The translations under genes and the position numbers were made by a program. Source: TPA_inf: Saccharomyces (lineage: Eukaryota). From it: DNA of 64,000 nucleotides. The notes under the pieces were generated by a model that ran no database searches, was not told the origin of the DNA, and saw only the letters and a program-made list of their open reading frames with translations. The stretch lies in the NCBI GenBank assembly GCA_000146045.2, contig BK006946.2:224001-288000 (forward strand). The letters are read 5' to 3'. Position 1 is the first letter of the stretch. Each line of letters starts with the position of its first letter. Shown piece after piece: positions 34,417-44,150 of this stretch.

Positions 34417-35157
34417 TATATTTAAGTAACAGAGTGCTTTTTGATGGTTTTTGTTAACCGTCTTTCGAGCAGTTGAAGGATGAGAGTGAGTGTTAATGAG
34501 GGGTTATTTCTGCAAAACTTCTGCCGATATATTCTGCACTTAGTTCCCGCTGTTGTTCAGCCTTCACGTTCCTTAGCTACACAAGTCAGTTAAATCTGGT
34601 CCTGCCAAAGTGAATAAGTTGAAGATATTTATCTAGCTTGCGATGGAAAAAACTACAATAGGAAAAAAACTAATTAAAAAAAGAAAAAAAAAGAGAAGAA
34701 TTCAATGTTTAGGGATATAAATTCGATATAAAGGTTTAAAGTAAATAAATTTCGTGTATTACTATGCAAGTAATGTTTCTGCCTGCACCGGCTTCGTAGC
34801 TGGTGGAGTGCGATAGCGATGATACTACCTGAAAACACAGAGGAAGGCCGTCAGCCCCGCGCTAGGAACGATGAGGAGAAACCAGTTGGCGAATCGCCAC
34901 ATGCCATTTACGTAAAAGATGCTGTGTAACCTAACAGAAATAATCGATGGTGTGAACTAAAGTCCTAGGATGCACATAAGCAAGCGAAAAAGTGAAAACA
35001 ACATTTCCAGAGCTAAAAAAATGCATTTGCCGATCCGAAATAATCTCAAAACGAAAAAATGATTATGGACGTAAACAAAATTACCGCATTTCGCTCTCCT
35101 ATTATCATAACAAGCATGAGCGCAAAACTTAAAAATCCATCAAGAGGCAAAAAATAA

Positions 35158-35239
35158 CGACAACTGCAGGACTCGAACCTGCGCGGGCAAAGCCCAAAAG
35201 ATTTCTAATCTTTCGCCTTAACCACTCGGCCAAGTTGCC
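35158..35239 (-). tRNA. tS(AGA): tRNA-Ser, anticodon AGA, 82 nt with long variable arm, intronless
   Basis: rc reads GGCAACTTGGCCGAGTGGTTAAGGCGAAAGATTAGAAATCTTTTGGGCTTTGCCCGCGCAGGTTCGAGTCCTGCAGTTGTCG: A-box TGGCCGAGTGG, B-box GGTTCGAGTCC, anticodon loop TT-AGA-AA. Confidence 0.92.
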
Positions 35240-35579
35240 ATACTAACTTGATTATTTGTGTATTCTGTTTTCTTGTGATTCCTTCTGGTTACATAATTAC
35301 ATTGTCTATATTCATATTTGATTCTAACAGCAGGTAATATTGGTCTATCGGCTACTCGTTCAAAAAATTAAAATCGTTATCAATTATATTCCATAGTATA
35401 GGTTGTTAAAAGATGGAATTAATTAAAGTAGAGTAGTAGAACAGGGATCACAGTGTTATTAGATTTTGGAGCAACTGATGTGTGTGAGTAATATATAAGG
35501 ATGAATCGAATGAAAGTATTATGAGAAAAGGAATCATCGTTGTGTAAAGTTGTTCATTTCGTATTTCTGGGTACTGTGA

Positions 35580-39482: not shown

Positions 39483-42400
39483 ATGTCAGTTTACCATTTA
39501 CCAACGCTGTTGAACCCGCTGGTTAATGCTATATTTAACTGTCCCGAACCAGAAAGATCCCCATTGAAAAAGCTTTTCGCTAATTTAAAAACCCGTAGGT
39601 TTATCCTCCTAGCACCTCCTTCAGAATACCTTTTGAATTACCACGATGTCAAGAGCAAACTGCCGTTACATGACCTCTGTTATAATGCAGAGTTTATTAA
39701 CTCTTACATATTGTTAATGACTGAAAACTCTTACATAAATACGAATTCAAGGGACAGTCATTATGAAACGTTAGATGGTAAGACCGTTGTTATTCAATGG
39801 AAGAATAATGTGATCCATGCCTTAAATGGATTTCATATAAGGCGAAGACTAAAGATTCTAGAGACAAAAATATTACCCAATTTTAATGACTACTTTGAAG
39901 GGGCGGCTGATTTTATCATACTATTCATAGATCAACCTTTAAATTGCGAATTTGTACCTAACGACTACTTACAGTGTTTTCACAATTATGAGAAAATACC
40001 AAAAAATGCACATGCTATGCCAAATCTGTCGATAGATTCTTTTCAGCAAGAAAGATCGTCATTCGAGAATATATTGCACATTCATCCTGCTCGATTAACA
40101 CAGCTTGGCCAATTGTTTTCGAGTTACAGAACGCTCGCTCCTGGTGATGATCCATCTAGAAGTATTTTTGAAAGCATCGTGCAACAAGCATTTGATGGAA
40201 TGAAATCGGATTCACTTTTCAAGAACTTTTCTAATCTTTACGATCTTATACACGACTATTTTGAACTAAATCTTTACGATGATATATGGTCTAGGCTTAC
40301 TACACATTTCAAAGGCCACGAAGTAGACACTGAAAAAATAAATATTTTTCAGTGAACCAGTTGTTGACAGATTTTTACTCAAAAGATTATGGGGAATTTA
40401 AATTACACGACATCACTCTTATTGAAAGGCGTCTCCATCTAGCGTCCAAACATCTTCAAAAGTTGGCTTTGACCCATTCATACGCTGAAAAATCTAAAAT
40501 ATTAGTTGAAACTCTACAGAAATTATCAGGTACTACCGAAATGGATTCACATCAACTAGAACTACCAGACGGATTGAATAACATGACGATGGATGCAGAC
40601 ACTTTAATTAGCCTTTTTGTGCTCGTTGTTTGCAGAAGTGAACAAAAGCACCTTAAAAGTCATCTTTACTATTTGCAAAATTTTTCGAATAACTCTTCTT
40701 CTACAAAATTCGGCATTCTAGGGTATGCTGTATCCACACTGGAAGCAGTGGTTTGTTATTTCGAAGACTTCAACAAAAATACAGGCAACGTGGCGAAAGC
40801 TAACACATTATGTGAAAAAACTAAGAATTTATTAGATAAGTTGTCATGTGAAAACCCCACAAATGAAGTAGAAGATCTGGCAACATACAAGGATATTTTG
40901 ACCTACAGAAATGAGCAAGGACAATCCATTCTATCCATATGTATAACAAATCATAAAAACTACATCTTATTAGATATTCTTTCTGAATATGAAAACGACT
41001 TTCCAGTAGAAGACCTTTTAGAGGACGAAACGATTGATGGTTCTACGCTGCTTATAGAATCGATAAAAGCAGGAAATTTAGAAGCCGCGAAAGTTCTCAT
41101 AAAGATCATGCTGTTCAATTGTACTGAAGAGGAGCTGGTTTCTTATATCAATAAAACAGATAAATATGCACGTACCGTGGCTCATTATCTAACCCATGAA
41201 ATGGATATACTTAAAAGCATCGGAAATTATATTGATTGGAAACGAAAAAATTCCAGTGGACAAACGCCTTTATTTTCCATCTTTAGAAGTTATGATCAAC
41301 CAAATTATGAAGAAATGGTGAAGACCGCATTTGATATCGCAAATACTTGGTATAGAAAGCACAACAGTTTGTTTGACTATCTAGACCACACCGATAATAA
41401 GGGCAATAGCTTGTTGCATGTTTTGAAAACAAACATTCCAATCCTTTTACAACTGACTAAGCTAGATATTAATGAGGAAAATTATAAGGGATTGACGCCA
41501 TTAATGGTATATGTGAAGTACAAAAGACTAAGTAATATTGACGCCATCACGAAAGACCGTCGACTTATATTAGAGAAGGTTCAAAACTCGACCTTCTTCA
41601 CTTGTTTTGATTATGCAAAAGATCACTCGGTACTAAGCAAGATAGGAGAAAGGGGTGTCAAAGATTCACTTTTTGGATTAATATATTTTCATTCTTTGCG
41701 ATATCATAATTTAAATGCGACAACAAATATAACATCCGTTTCAAATGCAGAGAAACCTTTCGCCACTACTGTTATTAACATGAAAACAATTCAAGGCTTA
41801 CTACGCTCAATTCTGAAAGACAATCCGTTCACCTTTTTGCCATTAAATACCTATATCGATGAAATATCGCACTTAAACCGTTCTGATTTAACAATAATCG
41901 GGAAAACAGATGTCACATCGTTACTTCACCAATTAACTAACTGCTTCAACGTTCTTTTATTCCTGAAAAAAATTCCAGAAAATTTGTTCACTGATGAGGC
42001 TTCTATCTTATATTGGATGCGCATAAACACTTCTAAAAGAAACCAGAAACCCTCAGGAAAAGAAAATCCAAAAACAATGGAACCCGAGGAGATTAATATG
42101 ATACAAAGCTTTTTACGTTTTAATTTTGATGAGATTTCATCATTTAAGGCAAGCTTGAATATTTTGAGGAAAGTCTTAATATTTATTAATTTGAAATCCG
42201 ATGATTTCGAGGATGCTTATAAGGGTCTTAACGAAATGGGTAGAAAATTAATTAATAGTGAAGCATCCAGCGCATTTAAGGGGATTATAACAAATCATAA
42301 TATGTTCAGTGAATTATCGCTAGCAGCACTACTAGAAAACGTGCGTTTCTTGGAACAATGTACTATCCAACTATCTAGTTTCGTTCAGATAATTTTATTT

Positions 42401-42754
42401 GAAAAAATTCCGAACTGGTGGAAACATTATGGTGAGTTTTTAGCTTTACATAAAAGCTATCGGAAGGCTTTTCCTAACATGGTTAAGCCAAAAAGTGCAT
42501 CAGATACCTCTAGTCGTGCTCCACTTGGTGGTTTTATTGAAACGAAGCGTGAACAATCGGAGCAAAGACTAGCGGTTCAGATAAAGGCCTCTTCAAAAAT
42601 GCTCAAAGAACTTGGAAGCGAAATTTTTGTAGCTCACGAAAGGTTGGCCGAGGAACTAAGCAATTATATGGAGTTCAGGAAGGCGTGCTTAGATCAGCGT
42701 AGTCTTGTGGCATTTGCCACAACCAACATTAGCGTTCTTCAAGAATGTGTTTAA
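39483..42754 (+). pseudogene. VRL1: VPS9-domain Rab5-family GEF gene VRL1, disrupted by a -1 frameshift: 5' fragment 39483..40355 (290 aa, YML003W) and 3' fragment in the -1 frame, open from 40334, annotated ATG 40541..42754 (737 aa, YML002W)
   Basis: Two same-strand ORFs in frames 0 and +2 overlap only over 40334-40352, inside A6/T5 homopolymer runs. Reading through with one extra A gives continuous ...VDTEKNKYFSVNQLLTDF... and a VPS9 catalytic helix (MDADTLISLFVLVV...) just downstream. Confidence 0.8.
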
Positions 42755-43173
42755 GATTGACTGAGCATTGCAATATTTTACCTTCTTCTCACTTGTTCTA
42801 TAGAATTTTTTACCCAAAAATAAGAGATAAAGAGTTTGAAAGAAACATCATTACATATATATATATATACGGGCAGCTCCGTAACTCGAAAAGAGTGACA
42901 GCTGTTTTACTCTGTAATAGCTGACGATTCTTCAGTGATTGGAATAACCTCAGAACTCACCGGTACGGGTAACGTTTGTATCTCGCGGATTAACTTTTCG
43001 CATTTCGACCTACTGAGAGAAGAAGTTCCTTTTGTTAATCTGTACCTTTATCTTGAAAGCAGTCGTTACAGAGGAACAGCATTGGGAATCACCAACAAAA
43101 TAAGAGGAATAAGCTCATCCAGTCCACTTCTTATCCATATAGAAACCCCTTCTGTATCAATTCAAATTAAGTG

Positions 43174-43800
43174 ATGTCTTCTAGAAAAAAAAATATTTTG
43201 AAAGTAATCATCCTAGGTGACTCTGGTGTTGGGAAGACCTCCTTGATGCACCGTTATGTCAATGATAAGTATTCTCAACAGTATAAAGCAACAATTGGGG
43301 CTGACTTTTTAACAAAAGAGGTGACAGTTGACGGTGATAAAGTTGCCACCATGCAAGTTTGGGATACTGCTGGACAGGAACGTTTCCAATCACTGGGTGT
43401 TGCTTTCTATAGAGGTGCAGATTGTTGCGTTTTGGTCTACGATGTGACCAATGCCAGTTCCTTTGAGAATATTAAGTCTTGGCGAGATGAATTTCTAGTG
43501 CATGCGAACGTAAACTCACCAGAAACATTTCCATTTGTTATACTGGGAAATAAAATTGATGCCGAAGAATCTAAAAAAATTGTATCAGAAAAGTCCGCTC
43601 AGGAGCTTGCTAAATCATTAGGCGATATTCCTTTGTTTTTAACAAGTGCCAAAAACGCCATAAACGTTGATACCGCATTTGAAGAAATTGCAAGGAGTGC
43701 TTTACAACAGAATCAAGCTGATACAGAAGCCTTTGAAGATGACTATAATGATGCCATCAATATTCGCCTAGATGGAGAAAATAATTCTTGTAGCTGTTGA
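43174..43800 (+). CDS. YPT7: Rab7-family GTPase, 208 aa, C-terminal CSC prenylation motif
   Basis: P-loop [21 protein letters not shown]-terminal ...SCSC. Confidence 0.95.
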
Positions 43801-44030: not shown

Positions 44031-44150
44031 ATCACATGACTACCTAACAAAATATTTATTTTTCTTTTTTAATATTTGAAAATACTAAAATATTTTTGTT
44101 GTTTTTTGAAAAAAGGATTTTTAATGTGTATGCGTTCCGAACTTTAAATA
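44031..44150 (+). other. CEN13: Point centromere CEN13: CDEI ATCACATG (44031-44038), CDEII 86 bp >90% A+T (44039-44124), CDEIII TGTGTATGCGTTCCGAACTTTAAATA (44125-44150)
   Basis: CDEI matches RTCACRTG; CDEIII has the invariant CCGAA core flanked by TGT..TG and A-rich 3' side; CDEII length within the 78-86 bp norm. Confidence 0.9.

Follow-up and report, generated by a model that had tools for sequence, protein, structure and literature searches.

Within the 64,000-nucleotide stretch of Saccharomyces DNA analyzed here (hereafter, the window), the locus under study consists of two open reading frames (ORFs) that lie on the same strand in different frames. A direct read of the window sequence places the first in frame 0, where 290 codons run from an ATG to a TGA, and the second in frame 2, which a TGA closes upstream, which is open from 40334 onward and which ends on the stop codon at 42752–42754; two homopolymers lie near the break between them, an A6 run and a T5 run (40345–40349). 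The earliest ATG in frame 2 is at 40541 and corresponds to Met354 of the fused protein, within its VPS9 core. The original prediction had all the coordinates of this ORF pair right, but the length of about 800 codons that it gave to the second member holds only when counting from the GTG at 40352 (806 codons from the opening of the frame), not for the annotated, ATG-initiated YML002W of 737 aa. An exact-sequence look-up identified the 290-aa and 737-aa products as those of S288C YML003W and YML002W, at 100% (accessions in table 1). Searched as a fused translation, the pair retrieved a cluster of 1090-aa Saccharomyces cerevisiae proteins with 206 members and full-length orthologues of 1067–1204 aa across the Saccharomycetaceae that are colinear over the break, more than forty of the orthologues, of ~1090 aa, being colinear over both ORFs. 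Taken with the exact matches to the S288C products, this colinearity shows that the pairing of the ORFs is not due to chance. Restoring one base in silico yields a single ORF of 1090 aa, the length that is also found in natural intact alleles of the gene, VRL1.

Table 1. Features of the VRL1 locus, in window coordinates.
Feature	Position	Strand	Remarks
N-terminal alpha/beta domain, residues about 1–166	39483..39980	+	AlphaFold2 model, pLDDT mostly around 90; kept in the truncated product
YML003W ORF	39483..40355	+	VRL1 codons 1–285, then INIFQ read out of frame, then the premature TGA; product identical to NP_013711.1
Four-helix bundle of the HB-VPS9 tandem, residues 186–275	40038..40307	+	Upstream of the break; model helices 186–200, 202–218, 226–241, and 252–275
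TGA, frame 2	40331..40333	+	Upstream limit for the position of the frame change
A6 run made by the deletion	40333..40338	+	Lost base, T856 of the ORF, lay between 40337 and 40338; AAAAA-T-A in the wild type; based on 12 intact alleles and the primer of Bean et al.
3' part of VRL1, frame 2	40338..42754	+	Codons 286 (partial) to 1090 plus stop
Premature TGA, frame 0	40353..40355	+	Terminates the 290-aa product
Pfam VPS9 (PF02204), residues 320–431	40439..40774	+	Catalytic Asp373 codon GAC at 40598–40600
Annotated YML002W	40541..42754	+	737 aa from Met354 of Vrl1, start inside the VPS9 core; product identical to NP_013712.1
Ankyrin-repeat region, about residues 465–703	40874..41590	+	Boundaries from Shortill et al. 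2022
PX-like and BAR module, about residues 732–1090	41675..42751	+	Fold comparison and Shortill et al. 2022

The neighbors of the locus are consistent with this identification: upstream come a minus-strand glyoxalase gene and, farther away, a gene for a TRM5/TYW2-type methyltransferase, and a Ypt7-like Rab gene (43171–43800; a Rab7 homolog) follows about 420 bp downstream of VRL1 on the same strand. The adjacency of VRL1 and the Ypt7-like gene is kept in S. kudriavzevii, S. eubayanus, and S. arboricola. A point-centromere signature (44031–44150), noted by eye, separates the Ypt7-like gene from an ORF that resembles polo kinases. It is composed of a CDEI element (ATCACATG, 44031–44038), about 86 bp of AT-rich sequence, and a CDEIII core (TTCCGAA, 44135–44141), and by comparison with the consensus would fit CEN13. 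A Rfam scan of the whole window returned nothing at the VRL1 locus, the sole tRNA or Rfam match in the 64 kb being a tRNA-Ser with anticodon AGA on the minus strand (35157–35240).

With regard to the lost base, the opening of frame 2 and the stop of frame 0 confine any restoring one-base insertion to 40334–40352 (19 nt), an interval that had been delimited correctly from the outset and into which the deletion indeed falls. The enumeration of all restoring insertions within this interval gave 50 different junction peptides, so that the window sequence alone cannot name the base. Other S. cerevisiae strains, in which the wild type at the site is CTGAAAAATATAAAT, do name it: 12 of the first 14 orthologous loci fetched read CTGAAAAATATAAATAT and encode one 1090-aa ORF, where the window reads CTGAAAAAATAAATAT. 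A single T that wild strains possess is thus absent, its surroundings being CTGAAAAA[T]ATAAATAT, and because the intact alleles read A5-T-A, the A6 run of the window is the product of the deletion and not a shortened homopolymer. Counted from the start codon, T856 falls at window position 40338 (39483 + 855), in concordance with the alignment of the loci. The ancestral junction is EKYKYFSV, with Tyr286 encoded by TAT, and the deletion state is derived. Among the relatives, S. kudriavzevii has the same A5-T-A and Tyr286 as intact S. cerevisiae in an uninterrupted ORF of 1090 aa, S. eubayanus reads GATAACTGCGAA in an uninterrupted ORF of 1090 aa, and S. arboricola reads GAAAAAAATAAA (A7, Asn286) at the orthologous position of an uninterrupted ORF of 1087 aa. 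The same lesion has been described experimentally as a thymine deletion at chrXIII:264337, the insertion of T856 recreating the ORF, and the correcting primer used (...CACTGAAAAATATAAATAT) has the same sequence as the intact alleles (Bean et al. 2015; PMC4357511). The expectation that one extra base in other strains would give a single ORF was therefore borne out in the 12 intact loci, each of 1090 aa; the accompanying proposal of a frameshift in a homopolymer run, to be repaired by adding one A with EKNKYF as the junction, was not, since those same 12 alleles show that the lost base is a T, that A6 is a consequence of its loss, and that residue 286 is Tyr.

On this basis, the window almost certainly carries the published one-base-deletion vrl1 allele of laboratory strains, as a real and inactivating change. 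We found no difference from that allele (Bean et al. 2015, Mol Biol Cell 26:1119; Shortill et al. 2022, eLife 11:e77035), the ORF products, the missing T856, and the primer-matching context being the same. The lesion is accordingly already known, published in 2015 and since built on, and the locus holds no new gene; the reading of the pair as VRL1 split by a known single-base deletion stood up against the exact products, the intact alleles elsewhere, and the work of Bean et al. 2015.

From the perspective of its distribution, the two remaining loci of the 14, those of CEN.PK113-7D (GCA_000269885.1) and GCA_016858175.1, carry CTGAAAAAATAAATAT, as the window does, their reading frame closing after 290 codons, and the identical 290-aa product is encoded by contigs from several independent SRA runs. 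The attribution of the lesion to the S288C lineage in the original prediction is right for S288C itself but a little narrow, since CEN.PK113-7D carries it too; in the literature, its scope is given as "most laboratory strains." Two YJM-strain chromosomes (L006 and L009) equal the window at all sites of the gene that are polymorphic in S. cerevisiae, bar the T, which implies that the intact parent haplotype persists and that the deletion is the only change made to it. The downstream 2.4 kb of the window allele have gained no further disabling mutation. The lesion points to a recent event that occurred in one step. The same T deletion is present in GCA_030035895.1 (L018, ScRAP "CBM_collapsed"), aligned to 39483–42754, together with private changes, namely the loss of 1 bp from an A run (window position 41245) and three A>T substitutions. 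CBM is a heterozygous diploid of the class "Wild" that was re-assembled from early ONT reads, and its deletion may reflect either a true non-laboratory carrier or an assembly error; if it were not an ONT assembly error, it would count against a purely laboratory origin of the lesion.

Database annotations call for some caution in this regard. On the YJM chromosomes L002–L006 and L009, only a 737-aa "YML002W" is annotated, when the DNA has the T and an uninterrupted 1090-aa ORF; likewise, only a 734-aa "YML002W" is annotated in S. arboricola H-6 (L017:1442–4705), when the DNA has A7 and an uninterrupted 1087-aa ORF. Evidently, these intact genes received their annotation from the S288C gene model, with the result that full-length Vrl1 is under-reported in protein databases. 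We considered, and rejected, the 737-aa YJM entries as a sign of a widespread frameshift, and the 734-aa S. arboricola entry as a sign of a frameshift in that species: in both cases, the DNA is intact and the short entry is an annotation artifact.

As to what the break separates, Pfam recovered a VPS9 domain in the fused protein (PF02204; 60.8 bits against a cutoff of 27, E = 1.8e-16, profile positions 3–103 of 104), in which Asp373, the equivalent of Rabex-5 D313, lies in an MDADTL motif and is invariant among 51 aligned sequences. The catalytic role of this residue was addressed by mutation in Bean et al. 2015 (PMC4357511), and the nucleotide exchange activity of Vrl1 on Rab5-family GTPases is likewise reported in the literature (PMC4357511; Shortill et al. 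2022). An AlphaFold2 model of residues 1–470 (mean pLDDT 83.8) lays out an alpha/beta domain (1–166), a disordered linker (167–184), a set of helices (186–275), a connector of lower confidence (276–307), and the VPS9 helices (308–455). The top PDB matches of Foldseek were the tandems of Rabex-5 (2OT3, 1TXU) and AtVps9a (2EFC, 4G01), with a probability of 1.00 over about 254–284 columns, the matches for residues about 186–455 having E-values of 7e-6 to 9e-5 and target-normalized TM-scores of 0.59–0.64. The family profile, for its part, aligned residues 17–251 of 1TXU to positions about 194–434. A single-sequence phmmer search of residues 181–470 against PDB sequences returned nothing at E ≤ 1, Rabex-5 being reached by the family profile and the fold search only. 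Vrl1 thus resembles the tandem of Rabex-5, Vps9, and AtVps9a in the fold of residues 186–455 and in the conserved catalytic Asp, but differs from it by a sequence identity of only 12–15% and by other flanking domains. According to the model, the break at residue 286 falls in the connector that joins the bundle to the VPS9 core of a Rabex-5-type tandem, and the Pfam domain begins 34 residues farther downstream. The claim that the break cuts a VPS9 domain is hence correct in the structural sense of the tandem, but the Pfam domain itself lies wholly downstream of it. Upstream of the tandem, the N-terminal alpha/beta domain, the principal folded portion left in the S288C fragment, weakly matched FAS1/fasciclin folds in Foldseek (E about 0.1–0.4, probability up to 0.99, target-normalized TM-score about 0.5).

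The C-terminal modules are less apparent to profile searches. Ank_2 (23.3 bits against 27.3) and Ank_5 (19.9 against 27) both remained below the Pfam threshold in this sequence, while precomputed PF12796 or PF13857 matches exist in many orthologues and the family profile matches ankyrin-repeat PDB chains. No Pfam PX or BAR match was obtained in fused Vrl1 up to E = 1. A model of residues 700–1090 (pLDDT 86.9, pTM 0.84) had SNX1/SNX5 of ESCPE-1 (8AFZ), Mvp1 (6Q0X), and Vps5 (6H7W) as its best Foldseek matches, over about 390–410 columns with E-values of 6e-4 to 1.5e-2, these SNX-BAR matches having low TM-scores (0.27–0.40). The predicted PX-BAR assignment, visible at the level of the fold only, agrees with that of Shortill et al. 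2022 (eLife 11:e77035), who reported that Vrl1 is devoid of key PI3P-binding residues, hence "PX-like." Of the full VPS9, ankyrin, and PX-BAR profile hits that had been anticipated for the fused translation, only the first was thus obtained, the ankyrin matches being sub-threshold and the PX-BAR region being without a Pfam match. The N-terminal region, VPS9 domain, and ankyrin repeats of Vrl1 are shared with human VARP (ANKRD27), and the two are regarded as one ancient VPS9 lineage (PMC4357511; Shortill et al. 2022); VARP, however, binds retromer via its Zn-fingernail motifs, when Vrl1 has instead a PX-like-BAR module and the SNX-BAR partner Vin1.

Other origins for the two-ORF arrangement deserve to be weighed. 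If replication slippage had removed one base from a homopolymer that was ancestrally A7 (or T6), the junction would have read EKNKYF, and both the A6 run that now stands at the site and the A7 with Asn286 of S. arboricola at the orthologous position could be quoted in its favor. However, S. kudriavzevii and each of the 12 intact S. cerevisiae alleles have A5-T-A with Tyr286, the T is present in L006 and L009, which bear the haplotype of the window elsewhere, and the base reported as deleted in the literature is a thymine (PMC4357511); the slippage scenario is thus highly improbable, and its claim on the origin of the lesion in S. cerevisiae is refuted by the intact alleles. A sequencing or assembly error, under which the organism would really have the base that is missing from reference-like sequences, is a natural suspicion as one-base indels beside A/T runs are a classic type of error, of which the CBM assembly, built from early ONT reads, has private examples. 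Yet, the deletion recurs in the independent CEN.PK113-7D and GCA_016858175.1 assemblies and in contigs of several SRA runs, BY4741 resequencing and the truncated protein confirm it (PMC4357511), and the NMD sensitivity of the transcript fits a real stop, which makes such an error vanishingly improbable.

It could also be envisioned that the arrangement is functional and not a lesion, either as two genuine genes or as one product joined by programmed −1 ribosomal frameshifting. The shift needed is indeed −1, and a tRNA-Lys on AAA (40335–40337) could in principle re-pair perfectly on AAA (40334–40336) to give EKNKYF. The zero-frame heptamer, T GAA AAA, is nevertheless not of the canonical X XXY YYZ form, and a search for a stimulatory RNA structure in the 92 nt downstream gave a result no better than shuffles (z = −1.09), so that programmed frameshifting is rejected for want of any unusual structure there. 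In addition, the relatives need no frameshift as their ORF is continuous, the protein made with an N-terminal tag is of truncated size, the rescue of muk1 vps9 in the S288C background needs the corrected gene (PMC4357511), and Vin1 and VINE functions are missing in laboratory strains (Shortill et al. 2022). A functional arrangement is therefore extremely unlikely, and we retain the single-base deletion in VRL1.

Intact Vrl1, of 1090 aa, comprises in order an N-terminal domain, a helical-bundle–VPS9 tandem acting as a Rab5-family GEF, an ankyrin-repeat domain, and a PX-like-BAR module. Loss of T856, the first base of the Tyr286 codon, between 40337 and 40338 leads the ribosome through INIFQ to the stop at 40353. 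The resulting 290-aa fragment keeps the N-terminal domain and the helical bundle, and is deprived of the VPS9 core with Asp373, of the Vin1-binding ankyrin domain, and of the PX-BAR membrane module; with its premature stop, the mRNA is a substrate of NMD, and the strain is left without VINE. Our own comparisons show the deletion, the identity of the T, the derived polarity, the uninterrupted ORF of the relatives, and the arrangement of the domains; the loss of function rests on published experiments, which are also the source for the truncated protein, the sensitivity of the mRNA to NMD, the GEF function, and the loss of the pathway. BY4741 was resequenced, a truncated HA-tagged product of the predicted size was seen, and corrected VRL1 rescues muk1 vps9 growth (Bean et al. 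2015; PMC4357511). Vrl1 and Vin1 form the endosomal VINE complex, which is missing from laboratory strains (Shortill et al. 2022; eLife 11:e77035). The YML002W transcript is stabilized in upf3-delta, as expected from a premature stop. The prediction of a loss-of-function allele of a Rab5-family GEF was hence right in substance, this being the laboratory-strain vrl1 of Bean et al. 2015, with a VPS9 domain that is complete in the fused protein.

It is very unlikely, albeit conceivable, that the allele is an incomplete null, in which a little protein with the ankyrin and PX-BAR regions would arise from occasional −1 slips of tRNA-Lys within the A6 made by the deletion, or from initiation at Met354. 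A 17-codon out-of-frame ORF (40389–40442) starts from the sole ATG between the premature stop and the ATG of YML002W, and reinitiation at Met354 would be further disfavored by it. A 2026 preprint reports a role for the ankyrin and PX-BAR modules in the inactivation of Vps21 that does not depend on GEF catalysis; if the allele were incomplete in this way, "VINE-less" laboratory strains would keep a trace of Vps21-inactivation activity.

Other natural null or hypomorphic alleles of the S288C background include flo8, hap1::Ty1, mip1, and mkt1. The vrl1 deletion is alike in belonging to the strain background and in taking a pathway away unnoticed from the standard laboratory model, and differs from them in the gene and in the type of mutation. 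What the present re-examination adds is the exact nature of this lesion, a T deletion that makes a homopolymer instead of contracting one, the proof that no other change sits on an otherwise intact haplotype that other strains still carry, and the caveat on annotation given above. As S288C/BY and CEN.PK are without Vrl1 and VINE, endosomal Rab5-family regulation is studied in these strains minus one of three VPS9 GEFs, a point that is already appreciated.
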